Assembly (NCBI GenBank): GCA_963663385.2
Contig: CAXXXD010000003.1
Location: forward strand, 999,471 to 1,023,470
From: Oceanispirochaeta sp.
Lineage (GTDB): Bacteria > Spirochaetota > Spirochaetia > DSM-2461
Direction of reading: 5' to 3'
Length of the DNA: 24,000 nucleotides
The notes below the pieces were generated by a model. It saw nothing but the letters and a program-made list of their open reading frames with translations. It was not told the origin of the DNA and did no database searches. Position 1 is the stretch's first letter. The number at the start of each line of letters is the position of its first letter. Below, piece by piece: positions 6,607-23,004 of this stretch. A program made the translations under genes and the position numbers.

Positions 6607-6720
6607 ACTTTTTTAAAAATAATTTTCAGGTTTTTTAAATCGATAAAAATCATGAAAAAATGCATGGATTTCCCATGTCAGACCTCTTTACATAAGTAAG
6701 GGTTTTTGACAGTATTCTGT

Positions 6721-8154
6721 ATGGAAAACAGAAGTATATATCGCAACATTTCCCCTCTGGATCATCGTTATTATCAATCCAATAAAGAGCTGTTCGAAAA
6801 ATTGTCGGACAGATTAAGTGAAGAAGCGTCAGTTGCCTACTGTGTCAAGGCTGAAATGGCTCTCCTCAAAACTCATATCAAGCTACAGAATCTGGGGGAC
6901 GATGCTTTAATTGCCTCTCTGGATAAAGTGGAAAAGTCCATTACTCCCGAAGAAGTTTATATCGAAGAAGAGAAAACCCAGCACAATATCCGTGCCCTTG
7001 TTAATGTCATTAATAGGAAAGTTTCAGAGAAACTGAAACCCTGGGTTCATATGGGCGCAACATCCGTTGATATTCTTGATACGGCCAATGCCATGAGAAT
7101 GCGGGATGTTACCCGTGAAGTTATACTTCCTCTCCTTATGGAGCTGGAAGAAGAGCTGATCCGTATGGCAGATCAGGAAGCGGAAACCCCGCAGGTAGGG
7201 CGGACGCATGGCCAGCATGCTGTTCCTGTTACCCTGGGATTCACACTGGCCGAATATGTTTCCCGGCTGGGACAGTCAATTGAAGAGCTGGAAAGGCTTT
7301 CAGCCGATCAGAGAGGAAAACTGGCCGGTGCTGTCGGCGGGTATAATGCCACAAGCATGATTACTTCGGATCCGCTGGCAATGGAAGAGATGTATCTGAA
7401 TTATCTGGGACTGAAACCCTCCGAGTATTCCACACAGATGGTGGAACCGGAATACCTTTTACGGCTTCTTCTGGAATACAATACTGCCTTTGGGGTTGTT
7501 GCCAATCTGGCTGATGATCTGAGACACCTTCAGAGATCTGAAATAGATGAAGTAAGGGAGTTCTTCTCTGCCACCCAGGTTGGTTCCTCAACCATGCCTC
7601 AAAAGAGAAACCCCTGGAACTGCGAGCATGTAAAGAGTCTGTGGAAAGCTTTTGCTCCCAGAGTAATGACATTTTACATGGATCAGATATCCGAACATCA
7701 GAGAGACCTTTCCAATTCGGCTTCCGCCCGGTTCCAGGCAGACTTTATCGCCGGATTTGCGGCGGCGGCAGCCCGCATGAAGAAGATAGTAGCCGGCCTT
7801 GCAGTTAATAAAGAACAGCTTCGAAAAAATTTGACAGCCGGCGGAGATTTCGTCCTGGCAGAACCGACCTACATCCTCCTGGCAATGTCCGGGGTTAACG
7901 ACTCCCATGAAATTGTCAGAAAAATCACCCTTTCCTGTGAAAAATCGGGAAGAACCATTAAAGAGGTGCTTCAGGAAGAGCAGAAAGAGAGCTGGGAGAG
8001 AATCTCCTCCCAGCTTAAAGAGGTCACTGGACTGGATGCGGAAGACTTTTACTCGGATCCTTCTCTCTATCGAGGCAAAACCGCAGAAAAGGCAAGAACC
8101 CTTTGCCAAAAATATACCGAATCCATCACAGCAATAAGGAGTAAACTGGCATGA
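6721..8154 (+). CDS. purB: Adenylosuccinate lyase
   Basis: N-terminal ISPLDHRY (PurB SP(L/V)DGRY-like) and the fumarate-lyase signature GSSTMPQKRNP. ATG 6721 is preferred over the tracked TTG 6706. Confidence 0.93.
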   Translation: MENRSIYRNISPLDHRYYQSNKELFEKLSDRLSEEASVAYCVKAEMALLKTHIKLQNLGDDALIASLDKVEKSITPEEVYIEEEKTQHNIRALVNVINRKVSEKLKPWVHMGATSVDILDTANAMRMRDVTREVILPLLMELEEELIRMADQEAETPQVGRTHGQHAVPVTLGFTLAEYVSRLGQSIEELERLSADQRGKLAGAVGGYNATSMITSDPLAMEEMYLNYLGLKPSEYSTQMVEPEYLLRLLLEYNTAFGVVANLADDLRHLQRSEIDEVREFFSATQVGSSTMPQKRNPWNCEHVKSLWKAFAPRVMTFYMDQISEHQRDLSNSASARFQADFIAGFAAAAARMKKIVAGLAVNKEQLRKNLTAGGDFVLAEPTYILLAMSGVNDSHEIVRKITLSCEKSGRTIKEVLQEEQKESWERISSQLKEVTGLDAEDFYSDPSLYRGKTAEKARTLCQKYTESITAIRSKLA

Positions 8155-9590
8155 TTCAGATTGAAGAAAAATACAGCTACGATGATGTCCTCCTGGTCCC
8201 TTCCTACGCGGATTTTTTACCCAGTGACAGTAATGTCAAAACCCGTCTGGCAGGGGATATCTACCTGAATGCCCCCATTATTTCAGCAGCAATGGATACG
8301 GTAACCGAGTATCAGATGGCTATCGCCCTTGCCCTTGAGGGAGGTGCCGGTGTTATTCACAGAAATCTCCCTCCCCAGGAGCAGGCTGCTCAGGTGGGGC
8401 GTGTTAAACGGTATCTTAACTGGGTTATCGAAAATCCCGTTACGGTTCAACTGGGACAGTCCCTGGGAGAAGTGGACAAGATCATGATGGAAACCGGTGT
8501 CACAGGACTTCCTGTTCTGGATAATGGAAAACTGTGCGGAATTATAACCAACCGGGATATGCGGTTCTGTACGGACTTTTCCATGAAGGTTGAAGACCTG
8601 ATGACCACAAAGATGATTCTTGAGAAAGGAACGCCTTCTGTTGAATCGGCAGAGAAAAAATTCAACGAATACAAGGTTGAAAAACTGCCTGTTGTAGATA
8701 ATCAGGGGCGTCTTACGGGTCTTATCACTGTAACGGATATGGAAAAACACAGAAGTTATCCCGATGCCGCTCTGGATTCCCACGGAAGCCTTATCGCGGG
8801 AGCGGCTGTCTCTCCCAACGATTTTGAACAGAGGATCCCTCTTCTGCTGGAAAAACGCTGTGACTTTGTTGTTCTGGATACGGCCCACGGCAACAGCCTG
8901 AGTGTTGTAAAAGCGGTGGAAGATATCAAGAAGAAATTCAATATAACCGTAATAGGCGGGAATGTTTCCGATGGAGATGGTGCACGGCGTCTGATTGAAG
9001 CGGGGGCTGATGCTGTAAAGGTCGGAGTCGGTCCCGGTTCAATCTGTACAACAAGAATCATAGCCGGAATCGGTGTTCCCCAGCTTTCCGCTGTAATGGA
9101 ATCAGCCGAAGAGGCGGACAAACATAATATTCCTGTAATAGCAGACGGAGGAATCAAGTACTCCGGCGATATCACCAAGGCAGTTGCAGCCGGAGCCAGC
9201 ACTATAATGATTGGAAACCTGTTTGCCGGTCTTAAGGAATCCCCCGGCAAGGAAGTCATCTTTGAAGGGCGAATTTTCAAACAGTATCGCGGGATGGGAT
9301 CTGTCGGTGCAATCAAGGAAGGCAGCGGTGACCGGTACCAGATGAAAAAGGATGATGATCCGGTTCCCGAAGGGATTGAAGGACGTGTTCCCTATAAGGG
9401 CGAACTGAAACCCTATCTCAATCAGCTTGTTACCGGATTGAAAAAAGGTATGGGATATTGCGGATGTCGCAATATTGAGGAATTGCGCTCATATAAAAAG
9501 TTTGTTAAGATTTCCTCTGCCGGTTTGAGAGAGAGTCATGCCCATGATGTGAGCATTACTCAGGAAGCTCCTAATTATAGCCGCTACTAG
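8151..9590 (+). CDS. guaB: IMP dehydrogenase
   Basis: YDDVLLVPSY start, tandem CBS region, catalytic loop GVGPGSICTTR, GGIKYSGD. ATGA overlap with the purB stop. Confidence 0.95.
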   Translation: MIQIEEKYSYDDVLLVPSYADFLPSDSNVKTRLAGDIYLNAPIISAAMDTVTEYQMAIALALEGGAGVIHRNLPPQEQAAQVGRVKRYLNWVIENPVTVQLGQSLGEVDKIMMETGVTGLPVLDNGKLCGIITNRDMRFCTDFSMKVEDLMTTKMILEKGTPSVESAEKKFNEYKVEKLPVVDNQGRLTGLITVTDMEKHRSYPDAALDSHGSLIAGAAVSPNDFEQRIPLLLEKRCDFVVLDTAHGNSLSVVKAVEDIKKKFNITVIGGNVSDGDGARRLIEAGADAVKVGVGPGSICTTRIIAGIGVPQLSAVMESAEEADKHNIPVIADGGIKYSGDITKAVAAGASTIMIGNLFAGLKESPGKEVIFEGRIFKQYRGMGSVGAIKEGSGDRYQMKKDDDPVPEGIEGRVPYKGELKPYLNQLVTGLKKGMGYCGCRNIEELRSYKKFVKISSAGLRESHAHDVSITQEAPNYSRY

Positions 9591-10868: not shown

Positions 10869-12406
10869 TTCTCGATTTCGGCGGACAGACCTGTCAGCTG
10901 ATCGGACGTAGAATACGTGATTTTGGCGTTTTTTCTGAAATCGTTCCGGGGGATGTCGCCCTGACGGATGAAATAGTGACTCCGGATGTGAAGGGAATTA
11001 TCCTTTCAGGATCCCCCTGTTCAGTATATGAAGAGGGGGCGCCCGCTCCGGATCCAAAGGTATTTGAACTGGGACTGCCGCTTCTGGGGATCTGTTACGG
11101 ATTTCAGAGGATGACTCAGCATTTCGGCGGGGAAGTGCTCCCCCTGGAGCATAAAGAGTACGGCCGGACCAAAGTTCATCATCTTGAGGAATCTCCCCTT
11201 ACCCGCGGGATTCCCGATAACTTCCTTTCATGGATGAGCCACGGAGACAGTCTGAACAGGCTGGCTCCCGGATTTACTCTGATCGGCAGAAGTGAAAACG
11301 ATCATCCCGCTATCGGCTGGGATAAAGACAGAAACTTTTACGGCATACAGTTCCATCCCGAAGTAACCCACTGCGATTTCGGAAACAAGCTGCTGGAGAA
11401 CTTCTGCTGCGGTATTTGCGGAGCCGCAAAGGACTGGACTCTTGACCTGTTTATCGGGCAGGTGAGTGAACGGATCCGCAGTCAGGTAGGGAAGGAGAAG
11501 GTTCTTCTTCTCATTTCAGGCGGTGTGGATTCTACTGTGGCGGGTGGTCTCCTGCTGAAGATCCTCGATCCCGAACAGGTTTATCTGATGTACATAGATA
11601 CCGGTATGATGCGAAAGGGCGAGTCGGAAGAAGTAGCAGTCAATCTGAAGAAACTGGGAGCGACCCACCTTCACCTTATTGATGCGCGGGATAGATTCCT
11701 TGATCCTTTGAAGGGGGTTTCCGATCCCGAGGAAAAAAGAAAAATCATCGGGGACCGATTTATCCATGTGCAGGAAGAGGAAGTTGAGAAGCACATCAGC
11801 GGGAATTATTACCTGGCTCAGGGAACCCTCTACACAGACCTGATTGAATCCGGTAAAGGGGTGGGGAATAAGGCGAATGTGATTAAATCGCATCATAATG
11901 TAGGTTCTCCCCTTGTAGAAGCGAAAAGACAGGCCGGTCTGATTGTTGAGCCTCTGGATATGCTCTATAAAGACGAAGTGCGAAAGCTGGGTTTGAAGCT
12001 GGGTATTTCCGAAGATATCGTTTTCCGCCATCCCTTTCCCGGACCCGGTCTGGGAATAAGGATTATCGGTGATGTATCCGCCGAAAAATGCCGGATTCTG
12101 AGGGATGCGGATTACATCTATATTTCCGAGCTGAAAAAACGCAACCTGTATAATGAAATCTGGCAGGCTTTTTCTGTGCTGCTGCCGGTTCGTTCCGTCG
12201 GTGTAACCGGTGATGCCCGTGATTATGGATTTGTACTGGCCCTGAGAGCTGTCGTTTCCCATGACGGAATGACCGCCGACGTATATGACTTTCCAACTAA
12301 GGATCTTCTGGAGATTTCCTCCAAGATTACAAACCTTGTTCCGGAAGTCGGACGGGTTGTCTATGATATATCATCCAAACCTCCTGCCACGATCGAGTGG
12401 GAGTAG
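10853..12406 (+). CDS. guaA: GMP synthase (glutamine-hydrolysing)
   Basis: GTG start overlapping purA by 16 nt. GATase domain (LGICYGFQ, HPE), ATP-PPase loop SGGVDS, and a C-terminal dimerisation end PPATIEWE. Confidence 0.95.
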   Translation: MDKILILDFGGQTCQLIGRRIRDFGVFSEIVPGDVALTDEIVTPDVKGIILSGSPCSVYEEGAPAPDPKVFELGLPLLGICYGFQRMTQHFGGEVLPLEHKEYGRTKVHHLEESPLTRGIPDNFLSWMSHGDSLNRLAPGFTLIGRSENDHPAIGWDKDRNFYGIQFHPEVTHCDFGNKLLENFCCGICGAAKDWTLDLFIGQVSERIRSQVGKEKVLLLISGGVDSTVAGGLLLKILDPEQVYLMYIDTGMMRKGESEEVAVNLKKLGATHLHLIDARDRFLDPLKGVSDPEEKRKIIGDRFIHVQEEEVEKHISGNYYLAQGTLYTDLIESGKGVGNKANVIKSHHNVGSPLVEAKRQAGLIVEPLDMLYKDEVRKLGLKLGISEDIVFRHPFPGPGLGIRIIGDVSAEKCRILRDADYIYISELKKRNLYNEIWQAFSVLLPVRSVGVTGDARDYGFVLALRAVVSHDGMTADVYDFPTKDLLEISSKITNLVPEVGRVVYDISSKPPATIEWE

Positions 12407-13065
12407 ATTTGTTCAAATGCCACTTTGATAAAAATGTCCGGTTCGTGTCGGGCATTTTTTATTTGCTCCTTTTTTGGGGCGTCAACCTGTTTTCCCAGTC
12501 TTCCGTCCTCTATAAAAGTGAAGTCAGGACCAGGTTAACCCGTGATGAGGGGTATGTAACCAATGGGGCGGTTCTTCTGGATGTCAATCCGGAAATCATA
12601 ACAGAAACCATGTCCAAGCTATCCATTGTTGAACAATGGCTCCTTGAGGGGATGGGAGAAGAGTCTGCCCGGAGAAATAAACTTAAAGTGGCCTTGATTT
12701 CCCTGAATCGTAACCCTGAAAACGATAATTCCTGTACTGTAAATTTCTCTCTGCTTGTTACAAAACACTGGCTGATAAGGAACCAGAATATGGATGTGAC
12801 CATTGAGGTTCTTCCGGAAAAAAAATCAGGCTGGATTAACAGAATAATCTATGATCTTCCCTTAAAAAGTCTTTTCATCAAGGAAGGCGGCTATACAGTT
12901 TATATTATCAGCATGGGTAGGGGGCGCTCTCTATTAGTGTATAATTTCACAGTTCATCTTGCGGGAATCCCGGAACAGCTTTTCAGTAAAAAGCTTTACA
13001 AACAGAATATTGAGTGGTATATAAACCAGATTCAGAATAACTGTATTAATTTCCTCCAGGAATAG
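12397..13065 (+). CDS. Hypothetical protein (start uncertain)
   Basis: Long ORF with protein-like composition and no motif I recognise. There is no in-frame ATG near the 5' end; candidates are GTG 12397, TTG 12409 and TTG 12463. The first ~20 codons coincide with the guaA terminator. Confidence 0.45.
   Translation: MGVDLFKCHFDKNVRFVSGIFYLLLFWGVNLFSQSSVLYKSEVRTRLTRDEGYVTNGAVLLDVNPEIITETMSKLSIVEQWLLEGMGEESARRNKLKVALISLNRNPENDNSCTVNFSLLVTKHWLIRNQNMDVTIEVLPEKKSGWINRIIYDLPLKSLFIKEGGYTVYIISMGRGRSLLVYNFTVHLAGIPEQLFSKKLYKQNIEWYINQIQNNCINFLQE
12431..12465 (+). terminator. Intrinsic terminator of the purB-guaB-purA-guaA operon
   Basis: ATGTCCG (12434-12440) pairs with CGGGCAT (12449-12455) around an 8-nt loop. 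It is flanked by an A run upstream and TTTTTTATTT downstream, 25 nt after the guaA stop. Confidence 0.7.
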
Positions 13066-13182
13066 ACTTTATCTCCCTCCTTTACTCTGATATCAAAAAA
13101 GAAAGAACATTCATTAAAATACTTGTTTTTCAAATTTACCTATCAGATAATTAAATAAGAAATATATGACGTATGATTATTA

Positions 13183-13212
13183 TTGATAAATCGATTTTGC
13201 CTGTTTAATAAT
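13183..13212 (+). promoter_or_regulatory. Sigma-70-like promoter upstream of the sensor operon
   Basis: TTGATA (13183-13188), 18 nt, then AATAAT (13207-12) in an AT-rich gap. The -10 ends only ~9 nt before ATG 13221. Confidence 0.35.
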
Positions 13213-13220
13213 GGTATCGC

Positions 13221-15407
13221 ATGTATCCGTCGGGGAGGATTGGTATCAAACGTTTCGGTTTGAAGAAAAACTTCATTCAGACAAATTTTTTAATAACCCT
13301 CGGAATATTGTTGATGGTAGTGCTGTCATTTGGCTATTTATGGATAAAGGATAATTTAAAAAACTACGATAGAGAAATCCGGTATATCGAGCAGCTGTAT
13401 ATTGATGCCAAAAAAGCCCAGATTAAGGATAACACAGAAAATACCATGAACTATATCAAGTCAGTGGAGGAATCCCTTGGACCGGATATCCAGTATGAAC
13501 TGAAATCTCAGGTGGATAAGGCTTTTCAGTTTGTCCGAGCTGCCTATGAAAACATGGCCGATACGGTAACGGGAGAAGAAATCAGCTCCATTGTTGCCGA
13601 AACATTGAGACTGCAGCGTTTTGATAATAATCCGGGATATTTCTTTATATACCGGATGGATGGGTTCTGCCTTCTGAATACAGCTGATTCCCGGCTTGAA
13701 AATACATATGACTCATTTCATTACAGAGATATAAATGGCGCGTATCCCTTAAAATCCATGATTGAACTCCTTGAAACTGACAATGAAGGTTACTTTGATT
13801 ACTATTATATAAAACCGGGCGGAAGCAGTCAGGAGGCCAAAAAATCCTATATCAGGAAATTTGAAGCTCTGGACTGGTTCCTGGGTTGCGGGATGTATAT
13901 TGATTCTATTCAGCTGGCAAAACAAAACGAAGTTCTGCGGACAGTAAGAGAGGACCATCTTATCAATCAGGAACCCTACAGGATTTTCGATACACAGTAT
14001 AACTGCCTTCTTGATCCCTATCATCCGGCCAACGAAGGCAGGAACATAAAGGAGATAGACGACAGGGCGGTTTTTGAAATCCTGCAGGGAACAGTAGCTT
14101 CCCTGGGAACAGATGGAGCAATCCGAAGCCGGTTCTGGGATGACCGGGGGACTCCGGACAGAGAAAACCGGAATATAACCTATACATCCGTATTCCCCGA
14201 ATGGAACTGGATTATTATCGCCGAAGATTCCCTTTATGATATTGAATATTATGTGGCATTGAAAAAACGTGAGCTGAAAGGCTCTATCCTTAACAAGATA
14301 CGTCGTGTCTTTGTATTAATGATTCTCTCCATGGGAACAGCCGCCTTCCTGTTTCACAAAATGTCCCGGCATTTTAAAAGAAGCATTGAACTCTTTATGC
14401 AGTTTTTAAAAAAAGCCAGCAGGGAAAATGTTCTGATCGATACAGGACAGATCCATTATGATGAGTTCAAACTGCTCTCCCGGATGGCAAACAGAATGGT
14501 AAAAAATCTGAAATCCACCCAGGAAGAGTTAAATCAAAGCCGTACTTTTTATCAGCATATACTGGATACATCCCCCATTATCTTTTATGTCAAAGATGAA
14601 AAGGGAGCCTTTATTCAGGTTAACGACGCCTTTGTAAAGATCAGCAGTACAGGCAGGGACGGGATTATCGGTCAGAGCAACGCCGGTATATTCCAAAAGG
14701 CGGATGCCGCTGAATGGAATGCAATCGATAACAGGGTGCATCAGACAGGGGTGGAAGAATCTCATGAATTAAGTCTGATGGTTAAGGGGGAGCCCCACAC
14801 CTTTCTGAAATATTACTCTCCGGTCTATCGAAACGATAAAAAAACGGTGGATTATGCAGGCTGGGCAATAGATATTACAGACCGCAAGGAAATCGAATCC
14901 AGACTGGAGGAGAGCGAACTGAGGCTGAAGAAAATCATAAGCTGCATTGATACGGGAATTATAATCATTGATCCGGAAACCCGCAGGATAACTGATGCAA
15001 ATCCGGCAGCGGTAAGGATGTTCGGGGCTTCCAGGAAAAACCTGATAGGACAGATGTGTCATAACCATATCTGCCCGCGCGAGTATGAGAACTGCCCTAT
15101 TCTGGACAGGCATCAGAAAATCAACAAAACGGAAGCCGGCTTTATTACCAGTACGGGAGAAGCCCTTCCCATTATGAAAACAATTGTACCGATTACGATT
15201 AAGGGGAAAAATCTGCTGCTGGAGAGTTTCTATGATTTGAGCAGGCAGAAGGAGGCTGAGCAGAAGCTGAAACTCAATATCAGGGAACTGGAAGAGTTCA
15301 ACCGTTTTACTATTAACAGAGAGGAGCGGATGATTGAACTGAAACAGGAAATAAACCAATTATATGCCCGGATGAATAAGGGTATAAAGTATAAGATTGT
15401 CATGTGA
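13221..15407 (+). CDS. Membrane sensor: TM - double Cache-like periplasmic domain - TM - HAMP-like linker - 2 PAS domains - coiled coil; no recognisable output domain
   Basis: Two hydrophobic segments (FLITLGILLMVVLSFGYLW; VFVLMILSMGTAAFLF) bracket ~300 aa with a Cache signature (GYFFIYRMDGFCLLN). PAS S-box-like segments follow (ILDTSPIIFYVKDEKG...; IDTGIIIIDPETRRITDANPAA). The C-terminal coiled coil is LEEFNRFTINREERMIELKQEINQL. Confidence 0.85.
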   Translation: MYPSGRIGIKRFGLKKNFIQTNFLITLGILLMVVLSFGYLWIKDNLKNYDREIRYIEQLYIDAKKAQIKDNTENTMNYIKSVEESLGPDIQYELKSQVDKAFQFVRAAYENMADTVTGEEISSIVAETLRLQRFDNNPGYFFIYRMDGFCLLNTADSRLENTYDSFHYRDINGAYPLKSMIELLETDNEGYFDYYYIKPGGSSQEAKKSYIRKFEALDWFLGCGMYIDSIQLAKQNEVLRTVREDHLINQEPYRIFDTQYNCLLDPYHPANEGRNIKEIDDRAVFEILQGTVASLGTDGAIRSRFWDDRGTPDRENRNITYTSVFPEWNWIIIAEDSLYDIEYYVALKKRELKGSILNKIRRVFVLMILSMGTAAFLFHKMSRHFKRSIELFMQFLKKASRENVLIDTGQIHYDEFKLLSRMANRMVKNLKSTQEELNQSRTFYQHILDTSPIIFYVKDEKGAFIQVNDAFVKISSTGRDGIIGQSNAGIFQKADAAEWNAIDNRVHQTGVEESHELSLMVKGEPHTFLKYYSPVYRNDKKTVDYAGWAIDITDRKEIESRLEESELRLKKIISCIDTGIIIIDPETRRITDANPAAVRMFGASRKNLIGQMCHNHICPREYENCPILDRHQKINKTEAGFITSTGEALPIMKTIVPITIKGKNLLLESFYDLSRQKEAEQKLKLNIRELEEFNRFTINREERMIELKQEINQLYARMNKGIKYKIVM

Positions 15408-15421
15408 TAAGGAGCCTTGTT

Positions 15422-16225
15422 ATGAAGAAAAGTGTACGGGAAGATTCTCTGGGAGATGAACTGTCAAATAAAGTACTGGATCAGCTTCCTACGCCGGTAA
15501 TGGCTATAGATAAAGATTATAATTTAATTTTTATGAATCAGGCCGGATTTAACTTTCTGGGAAGAAGCTGGGACGAAATAGCCGGGAAAAAATGTTATGA
15601 TGTTTTCTGTTCAGAGCACTGTGGAACGGATGATTGTCGCATGCGCGCTGTTATGAAGGGAGAAGATCCTGAAACAGTCAGAAATAACATTAAAATCAAA
15701 GATACGGTAGTGCCAATCGAGTATACGGCGGACTCTCTGAAAGACAGTGAGGGGAATGCTATCGGCGGGCTGGAGTATATTATCGATATTACTGAAACTG
15801 TAAAAAAAGAGCAGAAACTTAAACAGCAGAGCAGAACCATTATGGAAATCTCCACACCGGTTATCAAGCTTTGGGATAGAATCCTTATTCTTCCGATTGT
15901 GGGTGTGGTGGATTCTTTCCGGGCTATGCAGATGATGGATACCATGCTGAACAAACTGAAGGAAACTTCATCAAAAATCATTATTCTGGATATTCAGGGT
16001 GTGGCGGCAGTCGATACGGCAGTGGCGAACCACCTGATAAAGATTGCAAAAGCAACCAGGCTTATGGGTTGTCAGTGTATTATTTCCGGAATATCTCCTG
16101 CAGTCGCGCAGACCCTTGTACAGCTGGGAATTGAAATGGTGAATATTCTGACCACATCGGATTTGCAGGAAGCTCTTGCTGACGCTTTTGAAATAATGAA
16201 TTTTGAAGTAAAGAAGAGGGAATGA
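15422..16225 (+). CDS. RsbR-like stressosome protein (N-terminal PAS sensor + C-terminal STAS)
   Basis: AAGGAG lies 7 nt before ATG 15422. The STAS block STPVIKLWDRILILPIVGVVDSFRA...ILDIQGVAAVDTAVANH...GISPAVAQTLVQLGI closely follows the RsbR C-domain pattern. S165 and T199 sit 34 residues apart, like B. subtilis T171/T205. Confidence 0.88.
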   Translation: MKKSVREDSLGDELSNKVLDQLPTPVMAIDKDYNLIFMNQAGFNFLGRSWDEIAGKKCYDVFCSEHCGTDDCRMRAVMKGEDPETVRNNIKIKDTVVPIEYTADSLKDSEGNAIGGLEYIIDITETVKKEQKLKQQSRTIMEISTPVIKLWDRILILPIVGVVDSFRAMQMMDTMLNKLKETSSKIIILDIQGVAAVDTAVANHLIKIAKATRLMGCQCIISGISPAVAQTLVQLGIEMVNILTTSDLQEALADAFEIMNFEVKKRE

Positions 16226-16229
16226 AAAA

Positions 16230-16625
16230 TTGAGTCTGGATAATTTCAATAATAGTGAAGATTTACTCAATATAGGACTATATGAAATGGGTTTTTCCTT
16301 GATTGTTCCTGTTCCGGACATGATTGATCCAAGGTCTGCCGGGAAAATGCTGCAGAAAGTTATGCAGGAGATAGACAGGAGAAGATACAGGAAAGTTGTT
16401 ATCGATATTTCTGCCGTTTCTGTTCTGGACAGGATGTCATTTAAAATACTGCAGGATATTGCTAAAGGAGCGGAGCTTATGGGAGCCAGGACAGTATTCA
16501 TCGGAGTTCAGCCGGGGGTTGCCTCTGCTATGGTGGAACTTGTAGCGGATGTGGATACAATTGTCAGCGCTCCGACATTGAATGAAGGTCTCGCCATACT
16601 GGAAGGAAATCATGGTAATGGGTAG
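16230..16625 (+). CDS. RsbS-like single-STAS protein
   Basis: TTG start 4 nt after the upstream stop. VVIDISAVSVLDRMSFKILQDIAKGAELMGARTVFIGVQPGVASAMVEL aligns without gaps to the RsbS/RsbR STAS core. Confidence 0.85.
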   Translation: MSLDNFNNSEDLLNIGLYEMGFSLIVPVPDMIDPRSAGKMLQKVMQEIDRRRYRKVVIDISAVSVLDRMSFKILQDIAKGAELMGARTVFIGVQPGVASAMVELVADVDTIVSAPTLNEGLAILEGNHGNG

Positions 16626-17043
16626 GGATAAAAACTGCCTGACCGAGATTTGTGAAACCATTGAAGATTCGGCAGATGTGGCAAATGTTGTTATCCTTGC
16701 CAGAGAATTTGCCGCGGATCTGGGATTCTCTCAAACAGATCAGCATCTGGTTGCTACGGCTGTTTCGGAATTGACTACCAATATTGTGCATTATGCAGGC
16801 AGGGGGAAACTGACGATACAGGAGATCTCATCGCCGAAAAATGTCGGCCTTCAGATTATCTGTGAGGATAGGGGGCCGGGAATCGCTGATATAGAAATGG
16901 CGTTAACCGACGAATATTCCACAGGAGAGAGTCTTGGTATGGGTTTACCCAGTGTTAAGAGACTCATGGATTATTTTGAAATAGAAACTGAACCTCAGGC
17001 AGGAACGCGCGTTATGATCCGGAAGTGGAGAGATTCCAATTGA
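16612..17043 (+). CDS. RsbT-like anti-sigma-type serine protein kinase (GHKL/HATPase_c_2)
   Basis: ATG 16612 follows GGAAGGA and overlaps the RsbS-like gene by 14 nt. N box SELTTNIVHYA, G1 EDRGPGI, G2 GMGLPSVKRLMD. Confidence 0.88.
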   Translation: MVMGRDKNCLTEICETIEDSADVANVVILAREFAADLGFSQTDQHLVATAVSELTTNIVHYAGRGKLTIQEISSPKNVGLQIICEDRGPGIADIEMALTDEYSTGESLGMGLPSVKRLMDYFEIETEPQAGTRVMIRKWRDSN

Positions 17044-17627
17044 ACAAGGTGGATTATGCCTCCGGGAAAGAATCCATTTACGGCCCTGATGAAGTGGAAT
17101 GCGGTGATGCGGTTCTCATCCTTCCGGATGAGGAATCTGTGTTTTTAGCCCTGATCGACGCTTTGGGGCACGGAGCAAAGGCTTATGAAGCAGCATGCCT
17201 GGCCGTCAGTTTTTTAGAACAGCACTATAAAGAGCCGCTCCCTGAACTGATGAAACAGCTTCATATCCATCTGCAGGGGTCCAGAGGTGTTGTCGCCGGT
17301 CTGTGCAGGATTCATGTTGCCGAGGGATACCTTGATTATGTAGGAGTGGGGAATATCAGCACAAGAATTTATGGTGAGGAGAAACAGTTTCTTCTTTCAA
17401 AGGATGGTGTCGTTGGTTTTTCCATGACCGAGCCGCATGAAATTCAGGTTGTTCTCAGGGAAAATGATCTGCTTATTCTTACGTCGGACGGGATTAAGGA
17501 TCTTTTTCCCCTGGAAGAATATCCGGATATTCTGCGGGGAAAATCGGAGAATGTTGTTCAATTCATAATGAAGCAATTCCGCAAGTTTGATGATGCTTCC
17601 TGTATTGTTTTGAGGTATAAAAAATGA
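17025..17627 (+). CDS. RsbX-like PP2C/SpoIIE-family phosphatase
   Basis: ECGDAVLI, IDALGHGAKA, LTSDGI and DDASCIVL motifs. The start is GTG 17025 or TTG 17040, which overlaps the upstream TGA. Confidence 0.8.
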   Translation: MERFQLNKVDYASGKESIYGPDEVECGDAVLILPDEESVFLALIDALGHGAKAYEAACLAVSFLEQHYKEPLPELMKQLHIHLQGSRGVVAGLCRIHVAEGYLDYVGVGNISTRIYGEEKQFLLSKDGVVGFSMTEPHEIQVVLRENDLLILTSDGIKDLFPLEEYPDILRGKSENVVQFIMKQFRKFDDASCIVLRYKK

Positions 17628-20600
17628 AAACGGAACTGGTAACCTTTGCTCCTGCCAACATGATTCCCATGAGTCTCCTGCGGCGGAAGATACTTCACCT
17701 TTGCCAGGATCTGGGATTTTCGCAAATTCAGGCGGTTCGAATCACTACTGTATTCTCGGAACTGGCTGAACAGGATTCACAGTACTATCTTTCCCGTAGA
17801 ATCACCCTTTCTCTCAAAAGGAAATCCATCCAGAATGACCTGTCACCTGCCCTTGTATTCTCTATAAAAAAATCAAGCCTGGATTTTCCGGATTCTATAG
17901 CTTCTCATTTTTTTAATGAATTCACTGTAAAGGAAACAGGGCCGGGGCTCTTTATGATAGAAGCTGTGAAGTACTTTCCTTCGGAGGTTTCCTATCCGGA
18001 CGAAAAGAGTATCAGCAGGTGGCGAAAAGCTCTTTCTGAACCGACAAAAGATGCCCTGTTCAAAGAGCTGGAGTTGAATAACCGTAAACTGGAAAAACAG
18101 GCAGATGAACTGATTTATGCAAAAAACAATGCCGAGAAAACAGCGGATGAACTGAAAATCCGTATTGATGATCTGGCCAAGGCCCGTACAGCCATGCTGA
18201 ATGTTATGGAAGATCTCGATTTAAGCAAAGCCAGTATGCAGGCTCTTATCGATTCCCTGCCGGATGTTACCATTATTTATGATGAAAACGGTTACTATCG
18301 TAATATATACCTTAGCAGAGATGAAAACTCACAAAATAACCAGTTAAACGGTATAACCGATATCAACGAGTTAATAGGAAAAAGTATCCGAGATGTGATG
18401 ACCGGGGAAACGGCCGATCTGATTCAGGCTTCCATCACCAGGGCTATAGAGGAGAAGAAAACCGTTCAAATGGAGTATTCCCTGGATACAGATTCAGGGA
18501 TTATCTGGTATGACGGGAGATTCTCCTCCATGAATACCCTGGATGCCGGTCTGGGACTGGTCGTCTGTGTTGTCAGGGACATTACAACTCTTAAAAAACT
18601 GACCAGTGATCTGGAGAATGCCAAAGAAGAAGCCATTGCCGCCACCAAAGCGAAAGGGGATTTCCTTGCGAATATGAGCCATGAAATCCGAACCCCCATG
18701 AATGCCATAATCGGCTTGAACAGTCTGCTGATTAAAACGGATATGACCCCAAAACAACAGGACTATACAGAGAAAATCGGAAAATCCGCCAGGAGCCTTT
18801 TGGGGATTATCAACGATATCCTGGATTTTTCCAAAATCGAAGCAGGGAAGATGGATATAGAAAAAACAAATTTCCTGTTAAGCGATGTTCTGGAAAATCT
18901 TCTGAATATTATTGGCGACAGGGTCCGGGATAACGGATCGGAGCTTATATTTAAACAGGATCTGACCATACCGAACAATTTGATCGGAGACCCTCTCCGT
19001 CTGGGACAGATTCTGCTGAATCTGACCAACAATGCTGTGAAATTCACCGAAAAGGGCGAGATTGTTGTTTCTACAAAACTGGAAAAAAAAGTAGATAATT
19101 CGGTCTATATCAAATTCAGTGTAAGCGACACTGGTATAGGGTTAACCGAAGAACAGCAGAATAAACTGTTTAAATCGTTTTCACAGGCAGACACTTCAAC
19201 CACCAGAAAATACGGAGGTACAGGACTAGGTCTGGCTATCAGTAAAAAGCTTTCCGAGTTGATGGAAGGCAGTATCGGGGTGAAAAGTAAATCCGGGAAG
19301 GGGAGTACTTTTTATTTCACAGTCAGGATGGGGGTTGGTGAAGAAAAGACCCGGAGGACTGTTCCCCGGGATCTGAACGGTCTGCATGTTCTCGTGGTGG
19401 ACGATAACGAAACAGCCCGGGAAGTGATTACTTCCTATCTGGAGGACTTCTGCCTCTCCGTGACAGAAGTATCCGGAGGGAAACTTGCCCTAAGGGAGCT
19501 GAATCAGGCCAAAGCGGCAGAAAACAGGGATTACGACCTGGTCCTGATGGACTATCAGATGCCCGATCTTAATGGTATTGAAACTTCCAGGCAGATCCGG
19601 GAGGGGCTTGAGAATATCAGGCAGCCAAAAATTATAATGATTACAGGATTCGGCCGGGAAGAGGTAATGAAACAGGCCGCCGGAATGGGCCTGGACGGGT
19701 TTCTGATAAAACCTGTCAGCCCTTCCATTCTGTTCGATACGATTATGGAAGTTTTTGGAAAGGGTCATGGTATGTCCGTAAGGAAAAAGAGGGCCGAAGA
19801 CTCCAGGCCGGAAAACTTCCGTCTGATTCAGGGGGCCCGGATCCTTCTGGCAGAGGATAATCCTATCAATCAGCAGGTGGCTCTGGAAACAATGGAACAG
19901 GAGGGGTTCCGTATCGATATTGTTAATAACGGTAAAGAGGCTGTAGACAGAATCAGCCTGGATTATGATTGTGTCCTTATGGATCTACAGATGCCGGTTA
20001 TGGATGGTTATCAGGCTACGTCGGAGATACGAAAGAATCCCGAATACGCGGATATGCCCATTATCGCCATGACCGCGGATGCCATGGTGGGTGTTAAGGA
20101 ACGTGTTATCAGTGAAGGGCTGAACGATTATATTACCAAGCCCTTTGATCCTGCCATGTTGTGGGAAACTCTGATGAACTGGATCAAACCGGGGAACCGC
20201 CCTCTGCCCGAGAATTATAGGACTGCCTCTGAAAAAGGCAATCATGATGGACCGGATATTCCTCCCATAAAAGGAGTTGATCTGGCTGACGGCCTCAAGC
20301 GGGTAGGAGGCAATAAAAGGCTGTACAGGGATCTGCTTGTTCAGTTTGCCAGGGATAACGGTTCGGTTACGAATGAGATACAGGATTGTTTGTCCAGAAA
20401 TGATATCAGGAGTGCGGAGAGACTGGCTCATACCATTAAAAGTGTAGCGGGAAATATCGGCGCTCATTCTCTGCAGAATAAGGCTGAAAGTCTGGAATGC
20501 GAACTGAAAAAATGGACGAGTCATCTTGAACCTGAAATTCTGAATGATTTTGATTTCCATCTGCATAAAGTGACTGAAGCCATAACGCAGGCCTGTCCGG

Positions 20601-20860
20601 GTGAGGATGAACAGGATATTGTTGAGGTAGAGGTGGTTTCTGATGATGTTCTGAAACCTCTACTGGACACTTTGGGGCCTTTTCTTAAAAAGAAAATGGC
20701 TGTTAAATGCAAGGCTGTTCTTAGGGAGATTGAACAGTATCGATACTCAGCGGACAGACAGAATTCCATAGAAGAGCTTTCCTCCATGATCAGGAGGTAC
20801 AACTACCACGATGCGGAAGACCTGCTCCATAATCTGATGGATGAGATAGACTGTTCCTGA
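17624..20860 (+). CDS. Hybrid sensor histidine kinase: degenerate RsbT-like N-domain - coiled coil - PAS - HisKA - HATPase_c - REC - REC - HPt - C-terminal helical extension
   Basis: ATGA overlap with the upstream stop. H box ANMSHEIRTPMN (His codon 18680-18682), N/G boxes (LLNLTNNAVKFT, DTGIG, GGTGLGL), REC Asp codons 19550-19552 and 19982-19984, HPt HTIKSVAGNIGA (His codon 20429-20431). Confidence 0.93.
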   Translation: MKTELVTFAPANMIPMSLLRRKILHLCQDLGFSQIQAVRITTVFSELAEQDSQYYLSRRITLSLKRKSIQNDLSPALVFSIKKSSLDFPDSIASHFFNEFTVKETGPGLFMIEAVKYFPSEVSYPDEKSISRWRKALSEPTKDALFKELELNNRKLEKQADELIYAKNNAEKTADELKIRIDDLAKARTAMLNVMEDLDLSKASMQALIDSLPDVTIIYDENGYYRNIYLSRDENSQNNQLNGITDINELIGKSIRDVMTGETADLIQASITRAIEEKKTVQMEYSLDTDSGIIWYDGRFSSMNTLDAGLGLVVCVVRDITTLKKLTSDLENAKEEAIAATKAKGDFLANMSHEIRTPMNAIIGLNSLLIKTDMTPKQQDYTEKIGKSARSLLGIINDILDFSKIEAGKMDIEKTNFLLSDVLENLLNIIGDRVRDNGSELIFKQDLTIPNNLIGDPLRLGQILLNLTNNAVKFTEKGEIVVSTKLEKKVDNSVYIKFSVSDTGIGLTEEQQNKLFKSFSQADTSTTRKYGGTGLGLAISKKLSELMEGSIGVKSKSGKGSTFYFTVRMGVGEEKTRRTVPRDLNGLHVLVVDDNETAREVITSYLEDFCLSVTEVSGGKLALRELNQAKAAENRDYDLVLMDYQMPDLNGIETSRQIREGLENIRQPKIIMITGFGREEVMKQAAGMGLDGFLIKPVSPSILFDTIMEVFGKGHGMSVRKKRAEDSRPENFRLIQGARILLAEDNPINQQVALETMEQEGFRIDIVNNGKEAVDRISLDYDCVLMDLQMPVMDGYQATSEIRKNPEYADMPIIAMTADAMVGVKERVISEGLNDYITKPFDPAMLWETLMNWIKPGNRPLPENYRTASEKGNHDGPDIPPIKGVDLADGLKRVGGNKRLYRDLLVQFARDNGSVTNEIQDCLSRNDIRSAERLAHTIKSVAGNIGAHSLQNKAESLECELKKWTSHLEPEILNDFDFHLHKVTEAITQACPGEDEQDIVEVEVVSDDVLKPLLDTLGPFLKKKMAVKCKAVLREIEQYRYSADRQNSIEELSSMIRRYNYHDAEDLLHNLMDEIDCS

Positions 20861-21176: not shown

Positions 21177-21983
21177 ATGAAAAATACCTGCAAACCATTT
21201 ATATTGTTTCTGTTTCTGCTGATACTCCCCCTTTGTATTCTGGCACCCCTGTTTGGCGGAGAGCAGAAAAAAGCCCCTGTCCACGGGCTCAGCTTAACAA
21301 CGGCTTTTCTCAACCCCAACTTCTCGGACCCTTTGGTCACACCCTTTCATACCCACGGTATGGGAGCCGGACTGGAACTGGCCTACACCCTGAGAATGTC
21401 CTCCTTTGCCCTGGATACAGGCTTTGCAGGAGGGGGAGGGCGGCTCTACAGCGGCAACTCCAACTTCTACGATCATGACGACTCCTTCGGCACGGCCTCC
21501 TTTTATATCAACACAGCCTGGCGGCGGTCAGTGATTGTGGAGAAAGCCTTCCTGCTGGCAGGACTGCGGACGGAATATCAGGGAGAAGTCTACCTTATCA
21601 GCCATATTGATTCGTATAACTGGAACGGGGACCTCTCATTTATGCCCTTTGCAGGCCTGGAGTACAATTTTTCCCGGAGCAGGCTCACCAGCTCCCTGGC
21701 GTTTTCGCTCTTCAGCCTGGTCAACCGTCCCCCCTGGACCATCTACGACGATGACCTGGATGCCCGGATGAGTGAGTCCCCCCTGTCCGTGCTCTTCAGA
21801 GGAGACTCCTCCGGTATTGATAAATACTTCAGAATGGTCTATGACCTCCACTGGGAGACAGAACTGTCCCGTCATTTTATCCTTATAAGCGGCGGATCCT
21901 TTCAATACATCAGAACCACCTTACCCCAGGAGGCAAAGTTTCTGACCGCCTCCGCAGACCTGGGAGTACGCTATGTTTTCTAA
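21177..21983 (+). CDS. Outer-membrane beta-barrel protein (unknown family)
   Basis: Signal peptide MKNTCKPFILFLFLLILPLCILAPLFG, alternating beta-strand pattern, and a C-terminal OMP-type ending GVRYVF. Confidence 0.7.
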   Translation: MKNTCKPFILFLFLLILPLCILAPLFGGEQKKAPVHGLSLTTAFLNPNFSDPLVTPFHTHGMGAGLELAYTLRMSSFALDTGFAGGGGRLYSGNSNFYDHDDSFGTASFYINTAWRRSVIVEKAFLLAGLRTEYQGEVYLISHIDSYNWNGDLSFMPFAGLEYNFSRSRLTSSLAFSLFSLVNRPPWTIYDDDLDARMSESPLSVLFRGDSSGIDKYFRMVYDLHWETELSRHFILISGGSFQYIRTTLPQEAKFLTASADLGVRYVF

Positions 21984-23004
21984 GTATGTAAAATTCCTTC
22001 TCCTTCCCCTGTGCTTCCTCCTGGCGGGCAGCTGCTCTCTGGTGCTGGGACCCGAAACGGGATCGGACAACGGATCGGTTTTCGATTATTTCTGGGACAC
22101 CTTCGACAAACAGTACTCCCTGTTCGAGCAGAAGGGGATCGACTGGGATGCTCAGAGAGAAACCTACCGGGATCAGGCCGTGTCTGCCCCCACAGAGGAT
22201 GCCCTGTTTGATGTCCTTGCGGAGATGATCGAACCAATGGACGATGCCCATGTCTGGCTTTCCGGTACAGGCGGGTATCCCTACTGCGATACCTGGGAAG
22301 AGCCGGGGATTCCCTCCCTCTGGTACAGCTTCTCCCTCTACGGTGTCCGGGAGTATACCGGGCCCCTCAGCCAGACCGCCGGGGATCTTGTCTCCTACGG
22401 TATACTCGCAGAGCGGAACATCGGCTATATCCATATCTCTTCCATGGCCGCCGATCTGGGGGGGATGACCACTCTGGAATCCTGGGTAGACGATGTCGAC
22501 AGGGTTATTGACCAGTACATGGATACGGATGCCCTGATTATAGATATCCGGAATAATACCGGCGGCTACAGCGCCAATGCCCGGCACATCGCCTCCCGCT
22601 TTGTCTCTCACAAAAGTCTCTACCTGAAAACCAGAACGAGAGTCGGTCCCGACCATAATGATTTCGGTACCGTCACCGATCACTACATCGAACCTCGGGG
22701 GCAGATTTACACTAAACCGGTTTACCTGGTGACCGATCCCCGGACCGTCAGTGCCGCCGAGTGGTTTACCCTGATGATGAGGAAAAGTGACAATGTGACC
22801 CATATCGGCTGGCGGACTACAGGCGCCACGGGAATGGTCTCCTTTCATGAACTTCCCAACGGCTGGGAGTTTTCCACCACTATTGGTTACACCACCGATG
22901 AAGAGGGCCGATGCTACGAAGGAACGGGTATTCAGCCGGAAATCGTCATTCCCTATGATCCCTCCGAAGCGGACAGTGTCCTGGCGTGGATTATGAATCA
23001 GTAG
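21973..23004 (+). CDS. S41-family serine peptidase, probable lipoprotein
   Basis: Signal plus lipobox-like LLAGSC. S41 motifs IIDIRNNTGGY and VYLVTDPRTVSAAEWF. Overlaps the upstream OMP gene by 11 nt. Confidence 0.8.
   Translation: MFSKYVKFLLLPLCFLLAGSCSLVLGPETGSDNGSVFDYFWDTFDKQYSLFEQKGIDWDAQRETYRDQAVSAPTEDALFDVLAEMIEPMDDAHVWLSGTGGYPYCDTWEEPGIPSLWYSFSLYGVREYTGPLSQTAGDLVSYGILAERNIGYIHISSMAADLGGMTTLESWVDDVDRVIDQYMDTDALIIDIRNNTGGYSANARHIASRFVSHKSLYLKTRTRVGPDHNDFGTVTDHYIEPRGQIYTKPVYLVTDPRTVSAAEWFTLMMRKSDNVTHIGWRTTGATGMVSFHELPNGWEFSTTIGYTTDEEGRCYEGTGIQPEIVIPYDPSEADSVLAWIMNQ

Follow-up and report, generated by a model that had tools for sequence, protein, structure and literature searches.

Stressosomes are widespread, yet only systems with RsbU and sigma-B have outputs that are understood. 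RsbT acts on RsbU via an N-terminal domain and a coiled-coil linker, and this design has been proposed to be exchangeable among phosphatases, kinases and cyclases, including kinases with RsbU_N (Ho and Bradshaw, PMC12143880). A conserved four-gene rsbRSTX module occurs with eleven downstream architectures, HisKA/REC/HPT phosphorelays among them; most of the downstream proteins, those of Vibrio vulnificus included, are without RsbU_N, and the coupling step was left as unknown (Heinz 2022, PMC9237108). In V. vulnificus, the module is followed by VvD1, a sensor kinase, and VvD2, a regulator (PMC9237108; PMC10014275), and a stressosome mutant of the species shifts expression (PMC10014275). Here we analyse a stretch of 24,000 nucleotides from Oceanispirochaeta sp. 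(contig CAXXXD010000003.1; "the window", on whose forward strand all positions below are counted), where six co-oriented genes span 13221–20860. Judged from their sequences, they are a membrane sensor (G1), a stressosome-type RsbR/RsbS/RsbT/RsbX module and a HisKA-HATPase-REC-REC-HPt kinase. We favour, with a probability of roughly 0.55, that the six genes make up a minimal stressosome of Vibrio type wired to a phosphorelay, in which the N-terminal domain of the kinase, here called HK_N, provides the coupling, preferably by pairing with RsbT.

The core of the locus is not novel: on sequence comparison it belongs to the published Vibrio-type class of rsbRSTX with a two-component output (V. vulnificus; Pane-Farre 2005, Heinz 2022, Cutugno 2023). 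Shared with that class are an rsbX directly after rsbT, an RsbR STAS domain matching at E 1e-42, a large hybrid kinase directly downstream and the lack of RsbU, RsbV, RsbW or sigma-B. The locus differs in that RsbR carries a PAS domain with a Cys3-His motif instead of a haem globin, that no D2 (REC-HD) gene comes after the kinase, that an output-less dCache-PAS-PAS membrane protein is added upstream, that the phospho-Ser of RsbS is replaced by Arg and that the host is spirochaete-like, its GuaB sharing a 90% cluster with a protein of Spirochaetaceae bacterium 4572_59. The globin is not genus-wide, as V. aquimaris also has a PAS-type RsbR: its gene order is 3xPAS-RsbR, RsbS, RsbT, RsbX, a 913-amino-acid hybrid kinase and a REC-HD regulator. 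That kinase (HK_N-HisKA-HATPase-REC-REC-HPt) is 42% identical to the kinase of the window over 750 residues, from HisKA to the end, and 26% identical over HK_N, and it matches the hidden Markov model (HMM) of the HK_N family with 117 bits (E 4e-38). A sequence-only reading of the window, made from the letters and without database searches, had called parts of this architecture nonstandard; rsbRSTX plus a hybrid kinase being a published class (PMC9237108), and V. aquimaris having the same kinase type, that view overstated its singularity.

With Bacillus and Listeria, the locus shares the RsbR/RsbS STAS core, the RsbT switch kinase, the RsbX feedback phosphatase and an output protein built from an N-terminal partner-binding domain and a helical linker (PMC12143880). 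It differs from them in having a histidine phosphorelay as output instead of a PP2C phosphatase and a sigma factor, an N-terminal pseudo-GHKL domain instead of the four-helix RsbU_N, rsbX right after rsbT and no equivalent of RsbS S59. The MtR/MtS/MtT/MtX system of Moorella thermoacetica, which feeds the diguanylate cyclase MtG, is likewise of rsbRSTX type with a non-sigma output, and the RsbX of the window is closest to MtX; however, MtG uses RsbU_N (PMC12143880), whereas the output here is a kinase with HK_N.

We collected related loci, referred to by L numbers, by scanning species-representative genomes with an RsbT alignment, which gave 80 loci, and searched these by tblastn with pieces of the window proteins. 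The neighbourhood survey of RsbT homologues that had been proposed from the letters showed that rsbRSTX plus a hybrid kinase recurs in loci of several phyla. The full pattern of PAS-RsbR, RsbS, RsbT, RsbX and a hybrid kinase with REC-REC-HPt is present in L002, L006, L014, L033, L035 and L069, which carry the labels Desulfobacteraceae, Desulfobacter, Deltaproteobacteria, Clostridium and Victivallales. That the gene order is kept in loci of several phyla supports one functional unit, and the 54–64% identity of PAS-RsbR across the full-pattern loci, spread over four phyla, would fit a horizontal spread of the module long ago. A response regulator follows the kinase in some loci (REC-HD in L002, L014 and L158; REC-adenylate/guanylate cyclase in L069). 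None follows it within the 24-kb window, nor in the close relative L001, and the window holds no further REC domain, sigma factor or STAS/GHKL gene elsewhere, which agrees with the sequence-only reading. Four points go beyond the literature searched: HK_N with its strict linkage to rsbSTX, the repeated disappearance of the RsbS phosphosite from HK_N-type loci, the upstream sensors that bear a common tail, and the missing cognate regulator of this lineage. Should no inference hold, the locus is still a clean and well-conserved Vibrio-type example in a spirochaete-like genome.

The N-terminal domain of the hybrid kinase

The kinase gene (17624–20860, 1,078 codons) encodes the domain order HK_N-PAS-HisKA-HATPase_c-REC-REC-Hpt. 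Residues 1–200 of the protein gave no Pfam match, though they are conserved in related kinases, and Pfam found no RsbU_N in the kinase. The first 150 residues (17624–18073) make up HK_N, which hhalign, AlphaFold2, Foldseek and its HMM family all point to as a degenerate RsbT/RsbW-like domain (pseudo-GHKL). Compared with the RsbT family by hhalign, HK_N reached a probability of 96.2% (E 2.4e-9) with an alignment of 9 sequences and 98.1% (E 1.4e-13) with 24. The alignment covers the whole RsbT domain but for a 19-residue stretch comprising the G1 box and the ATP lid, which is deleted in HK_N; the Asn of the N-box is also replaced (SELAEQ; family consensus SE..R). As both the N-box Asn and the G1/ATP-lid segment are lost, HK_N should not bind ATP and would be a pseudo-kinase domain. 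HMM matches were reciprocal, the RsbT model hitting residues 6–80 of many HK_N members and the HK_N model hitting the authentic RsbT open reading frame (ORF) of almost every locus. An AlphaFold2 model of residues 1–150 had a mean predicted local distance difference test score of 79.6 and a predicted template modelling score of 0.76, and the 10 best Foldseek matches to it in the PDB were all RsbW, SpoIIAB or anti-sigma-F factor, with probability 1.0. With RsbW, SpoIIAB and RsbT (HATPase_c_2), HK_N thus shares the overall alpha/beta fold, the first two helices and the S-E of the N-box helix, but it differs by the lost N-box Asn and G1/lid segment, the N-terminal fusion to signalling enzymes and the lack of recognition by Pfam. 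By these comparisons, HK_N is a degenerate relative of the switch kinase and presumably noncatalytic. We found no publication describing HK_N in the literature searched, and the domain was likewise absent from the sequence-only reading, as was the Ser-to-Arg replacement in RsbS described below.

An exhaustive HMMER search with HK_N against 1.84 billion representatives gave a family of 657 clusters at E ≤ 1e-3 and 299 at E ≤ 1e-10; a word-indexed search found nothing with HK_N alone, perhaps because a fragment of 322 residues represents the 90% cluster of the kinase, and only 4 short fragments with a 9-sequence alignment. In nearly all of the best 150 family members, HK_N lies at the extreme N-terminus. 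What it is attached to varies: the 73 longer members carry HisKA/HATPase_c (59–62 members), REC (37), Hpt (20), PAS (about 18), a SpoIIE-type phosphatase (9), a cyclase (2) or GGDEF (1), and going by these fusions HK_N is modular like RsbU_N. Its genomic position is far less variable. In 13 RsbT-seeded loci, among them ones labelled Acidobacteriota, Legionellaceae and three cyanobacteria, HK_N comes directly after rsbX. In a further sample of 76 HK_N-seeded metagenome loci of one marine-sediment subfamily, rsbX lay immediately upstream of HK_N in 71 of 71 testable loci, rsbT in 52 of 52 and rsbS in 44 of 45. The marine-sediment loci (L082–L157) have an RsbR that is divergently transcribed about 2.8 kb upstream of HK_N and does not head the operon. 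In L016, a 73-residue HK_N remnant follows rsbX (L016:6303-6521) and the minus strand carries, in convergent orientation at about 6700–9000, a hybrid kinase that has no HK_N; the arrangement suggests a locus that has been rearranged or is decaying.

After HK_N, family members have a conserved helix (SRxEL..KNxEL) and then a coiled coil leading into PAS or HisKA. In the window, this helical and coiled-coil linker (18071–18250; AlphaFold2 helices at residues 127–149) holds the motif KARTAMLNVMEDLD from nucleotide 18185, which is shared with the kinases of L001, L002, L006, L014 and L035. Its general form, R/K-x-A-M-L-N-x-x-E/D/K-D-L (18185–18220), stands in all of these between HK_N, or PAS, and the next domain. 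In its position, N-terminal and before a helix and a coiled coil, HK_N corresponds to RsbU_N in Bacillus. We favour it as the stressosome-coupling domain, probably the one that published work has left unidentified.

The PAS domain of the kinase (residues 210–324; 18251–18595) matches Pfam PAS_4 at 6e-6, and the kinase core (18650–19330) consists of HisKA (residues 343–408 with H353; 6e-22) and HATPase_c (residues 455–569; 3e-29). It is followed by two receivers (19364–20170; Pfam 3.5e-49) with D643 in REC1 and D787 in REC2, and by the HPt domain (residues 903–980 with H936; Pfam Hpt 3e-8), which with a 98-residue C-terminal extension occupies 20330–20860. In NCBIfam, the kinase core is BarA/TorS/LuxQ-like, below the equivalog cut-offs. 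The extension (residues 981–1078; 20564–20857) gave only a subthreshold match to DUF6483 (E 0.0024).

The RsbRSTX module and the RsbS phosphosite

All catalytic and phospho-acceptor residues of the enzymes are in place: H353, D643, D787 and H936 of the kinase, the N, G1 and G2 boxes of RsbT and the PP2C aspartates. RsbR (15422–16225, or from 15404 if the first GTG is used) is a 267-residue co-antagonist-like protein with an N-terminal PAS and a C-terminal STAS domain (Pfam PAS and STAS, 1e-16). The best PDB match of its STAS domain is RsbR of the V. vulnificus stressosome (7O0I_B, E 1.2e-42), followed by Listeria RsbR (6QCM, 7B0U and related entries; E ~1e-27). The two threonines corresponding to T171 and T205 of Bacillus subtilis RsbR are present as T199 and T231; T199 (VDTAVANH) is invariant in 8 PAS-RsbR sequences, and T231 (AQTL) is variable in the relatives. 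The PAS domain contains a Cys-x7-His-Cys-x4-Cys motif (C58, H66, C67 and C72; nucleotides 15593–15637) that is invariant in the PAS-RsbR of eight loci from several phyla, and this conservation suggests a metal, Fe-S or redox-sensing site.

RsbS (16230–16625) is a single STAS domain of 131 residues (Pfam STAS 4e-9), whose best PDB matches are Listeria RsbS (6QCM_A, E 1.3e-13) and B. subtilis RsbS (6JHK_A, E 4e-11), which rank ahead of every other STAS protein. At the position of the phosphorylated serine (B. subtilis S59, L. monocytogenes S56), however, it has Arg68 (nucleotides 16431–16433; lDRm vs. iDSf), and the same Arg is found in L001. The site is Ser or Thr in 107 of 123 aligned RsbS-like ORFs and a gap in two. 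It was not Ser or Thr in 12 of 44 HK_N-type loci and in none of 44 loci with other outputs, a difference (Fisher P value 2e-4) uncorrected for relatedness and representing about seven lineages. Non-Ser/Thr sites often precede acidic residues (DPDEF, DAEDW, DLQDF). The replacement by Arg68 means that the B. subtilis rule, in which phosphorylation of RsbS releases RsbT, cannot apply unchanged. Together, the repeated phosphosite loss in HK_N-type loci and the tail-bearing upstream sensors suggest a switch logic unlike the Bacillus model.

RsbT (16612 or 16618–17043; 141–143 residues) is a GHKL Ser/Thr switch kinase by its match to Pfam HATPase_c_2 (8e-12) and has intact motifs (N-box N55, G1 DRGPGI, G2 GMGLPSV). 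Its homologues in the protein database are called RsbT wherever they are named (by JGI). A sequence search of the PDB found no solved RsbT chain, SpoIIAB being the only match (E 2e-5), and the match to the NCBIfam anti-sigma F factor was weak (59 bits; cut-off 135). RsbX (17025 or 17040–17627; 195–200 residues) is a single-domain PP2C phosphatase (Pfam SpoIIE/PP2C 2e-9) with its metal-binding aspartates present, and it matches Moorella MtX (3ZT9, E 7e-21) and B. subtilis RsbX (3W40, E 4e-7). The sequence-only reading had identified the genes as RsbRST-like and named SpoIIAA/SpoIIAB-type partner switchers as the alternative; the structure matches of RsbR, RsbS and RsbX bear out the former. In three high-GC loci (L040:1399-2907, L057:10018-11385 and L074:4025-4993), the gene after rsbT is an RsbX fused to a second, apparently intact RsbT-like domain (PP2C-GHKL). 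We had considered these as intact RsbT-kinase fusions that might be intermediates, and dropped the idea on recognizing them as RsbX-RsbT2 fusions.

Proposed coupling of the stressosome to the phosphorelay

In the mechanism that we favour, PAS-RsbR and RsbS would build a STAS core holding the RsbT kinase, and the Cys3-His site of the RsbR PAS domain would respond to a redox or metal cue. On a signal, RsbT would phosphorylate T199 of RsbR and possibly T231, RsbS not being phosphorylatable at the canonical site (Arg68), and RsbX would reset the core. The state of the complex would reach the hybrid kinase by protein-protein contact through HK_N, in place of the RsbU_N of Bacillus. In the preferred version, freed RsbT pairs with HK_N, its degenerate paralogue, as SpoIIAB-type kinases pair with themselves, and the pairing would set the coiled-coil linker and so alter autophosphorylation of H353. 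The phosphate would then pass from H353 to D643/D787 and H936, and from there to a response regulator whose gene lies elsewhere in the genome. The sensor G1 would feed in a ligand signal from outside the cytoplasm (dCache) by way of its PAS domains and helical tail, probably by touching RsbR or the kinase linker.

More tentatively, and at somewhat less than even odds, we propose that HK_N is an undescribed pseudo-RsbT domain, derived from the stressosome's own switch kinase, that serves as a general adaptor of RsbU-less (Vibrio-type) stressosomes to histidine kinases, PP2C phosphatases and cyclases, and that in one subfamily a tail-bearing membrane sensor plugs into the same hub. If true, this would explain how most rsbRSTX modules act on the proteins encoded downstream, a question left open by Heinz 2022. 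An N-terminal pseudo-RsbT domain linked to rsbSTX is also a concrete target, and makes the coupling question directly testable in a tractable organism such as Vibrio.

A number of observations weigh against pairing of RsbT with HK_N or against the wider scheme. An interaction between VvRsbT and VvD1 was not detected (Heinz 2022, PMC9237108), which argues against a stable RsbT-HK_N complex, and the presence of HK_N in Vibrio was checked in the V. aquimaris homologue only. The HK_N model was built from a 5-sequence alignment, and its Foldseek matches have TM-scores of 0.47–0.68 with root-mean-square deviations of 3.7–5.4 Å. RsbS is without the phospho-Ser that B. subtilis needs to free RsbT, so the canonical release may not apply. 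The HK_N-seeded loci that show the strict linkage to rsbX come from one subfamily and are therefore not an unbiased sample. Scans of the region found no convincing promoter or terminator, and co-transcription of the six genes is an assumption. Finally, the role given to G1 is inferred from its adjacency to the module.

In the main rival, HK_N would be a mimic of RsbT through which the kinase docks directly on the RsbR/RsbS STAS core, and phosphorylation of the core by RsbT, reversed by RsbX, would release or recapture the kinase; RsbT would then not need to touch the kinase at all. Every solved relative of the fold binds a STAS protein, with complexes of RsbW-RsbV and SpoIIAB-SpoIIAA heading the Foldseek list, and the undetected VvRsbT-VvD1 interaction also speaks for this rival. 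The phosphosite loss (12 of 44 vs. none of 44), in view of which RsbS seems to be used differently in HK_N-type loci, fits it as well, although the statistic takes no account of relatedness. In SpoIIAB-SpoIIAA structures, the G1/ATP-lid segment forms much of the surface that contacts the STAS protein. The matching segment is deleted in HK_N, and on balance we hold STAS docking to be unlikely, at about one chance in four. A third possibility is that the coupling is enzymatic, RsbT transiently phosphorylating the kinase on Ser or Thr, in HK_N or elsewhere, as suggested for Vibrio D1 by Heinz et al. (PMC9237108). RsbT retains all its catalytic motifs and the invariant S45 of HK_N is a possible target, but S45-E46 falls, in the alignment, on the S-E of the RsbT N-box helix and may be a structural relic, and a substrate site would not need a whole conserved fold of 150 residues at a fixed N-terminal position; we regard this explanation as improbable.

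The six genes could also be neighbors without a common pathway, G1 being either a sensor in its own right or what is left of a split kinase, the hybrid kinase an ordinary PAS-regulated phosphorelay enzyme and the STAS, kinase and phosphatase genes a generic SpoIIAA/SpoIIAB switch. The weak anti-sigma F match of RsbT and its best PDB match to SpoIIAB would fit such a switch, the kinase has its own PAS domain and G1 is present only in some lineages, as tblastn of the related loci indicated. However, the best matches of RsbR, RsbS and RsbX are stressosome proteins, the genes nearby include neither a sigma factor nor an RsbV/RsbW pair, and the gene junctions overlap or are at most 14 nucleotides apart. 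The order is, moreover, kept in loci labelled Desulfobacter, Clostridium, Victivallales, cyanobacteria, Legionellaceae and Vibrio, and HK_N is linked to rsbX in every one of the 71 loci counted above, all of which makes mere adjacency very improbable.

The upstream sensor and the neighborhood of the operon

The sensor G1 (13221–15407; 728 residues, assigned from Pfam and hydropathy) consists of a first transmembrane (TM) segment at residues 17–43, a periplasmic dCache_2 domain at 47–332 (Pfam 2e-53), a second TM segment at 360–381, PAS domains at 448–557 and 568–674 (PAS_4 2e-12; PAS 1.5e-15) and a helical tail. The sequence-only reading had the domain order right throughout the operon except for a HAMP domain in G1, for which Pfam gave no match even at E ≤ 10 in the 73 residues past the second TM segment; all the other domains that it named were found by Pfam. 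The second PAS domain contains a Cys/His-rich stretch, MCHNHICPREYENC, resembling the motif of the RsbR PAS domain.

The tail of G1, ELEEFNRFTINREERMIELKQEINQLYARMNKGIKYKIVM (15285–15404), is about 45 residues long and helical (…ELEEFNRFTINREERMIELKQEINQL…KYKIVM). The same tail ends the protein directly upstream of RsbR in the close relative L001 and in three loci of other bacteria (L006, near 2176; L016:3870-4008; L035:8500-8650), with the consensus FNRxxIxRExxMIxLKxEINxL…KYxIVE, and all of these proteins are output-less sensors preceding a PAS-RsbR. The tail belongs to no Pfam family, and a weak match to His_kinase (E 0.024) was judged to be noise. The rest of the protein differs between loci: in L035, the tail-bearing protein combines two TM segments with three PAS domains, and in L016 an SBP_bac_3-TM-PAS protein is followed by a PAS-PAS protein bearing the tail. 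This points to a subtype of the module with an attached membrane sensor, the periplasmic domains of which are interchangeable. The linker motif of the kinase largely co-occurs with the G1-type tail, and both are absent from the 77 loci L082–L158. From its tight linkage and the analogous tail-bearing sensors elsewhere, a role of G1 as an input protein is plausible; a contact of its tail with the RsbR PAS domain or the kinase linker is conjecture. Prli42, reported as a miniprotein of the membrane that tethers the stressosome of Listeria, may be a parallel in being a membrane protein, encoded apart from RsbR, that feeds or anchors the stressosome, but it is unlike G1, a 728-residue ligand-binding dCache-PAS-PAS protein.

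The six genes have 728, 267 (273 from the first GTG), 131, 141–153, 195–200 and 1,078 codons, and their junctions, taken from the ORFs and by reading the sequence, range from a 14-nucleotide gap to a 19-nucleotide overlap, in agreement with the sequence-only reading at every junction. The stop of G1 at 15407 is separated by 14 nucleotides from the ATG of RsbR at 15422, which lies 8 nucleotides past AAGGAG; this site and the gene call in L001 support the start. A 4-nucleotide gap precedes the TTG start of RsbS (16230). RsbT starts at ATG 16612 (14-nucleotide overlap) or ATG 16618 (8-nucleotide overlap), the latter agreeing with the 141 residues of RsbT in the database, and RsbX starts at GTG 17025 (19-nucleotide overlap) or TTG 17040 (4-nucleotide overlap). 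The kinase begins at ATG 17624 in an ATGA overlap. An AT-rich gap of 155 nucleotides (13066–13220) before G1 contains a promoter-like site (TTGATA-18-AATAAT, 13183–13212; 10/12 matches), which is weak evidence because such sites are no more common in the region than in shuffled sequences.

Upstream of the operon lie purB, guaB, purA and guaA and then a 222-codon ORF, and the genes downstream, including an S41 peptidase, are unrelated. The operon genes have a GC content of 42–46%, and the window as a whole has 46.5%. The sequence-only reading had put the purine genes at 52–55% and taken the contrast as a hint of foreign origin; they are at 47–50%, and it is genes downstream, at 21177–23004, that reach 53–55%. 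In L001, a metagenome contig with an RsbT 82% identical to that of the window, the same order purB-guaB-purA-guaA-orf-G1-rsbRSTX-kinase is kept. Recent acquisition is thus not supported, and foreign origin as derived from GC content was rejected. The downstream genes at the composition boundary, with 64–67% GC at third codon positions, encode a predicted signal-peptide protein and the S41 peptidase. The 222-codon ORF (12397–13065), which lies between guaA and G1 and is also found in L001, has no Pfam match and a hydrophobic, signal-peptide-like N-terminus. A strong stem-loop (12430–12459; 13-bp stem and T-run) is placed just past the guaA stop, within the 5′ end of this ORF. In L001 (ENA contig ctg90373l), guaB, purA, guaA, G1 and the kinase are all split, and these are likely frameshift errors of a long-read assembly rather than pseudogenes.

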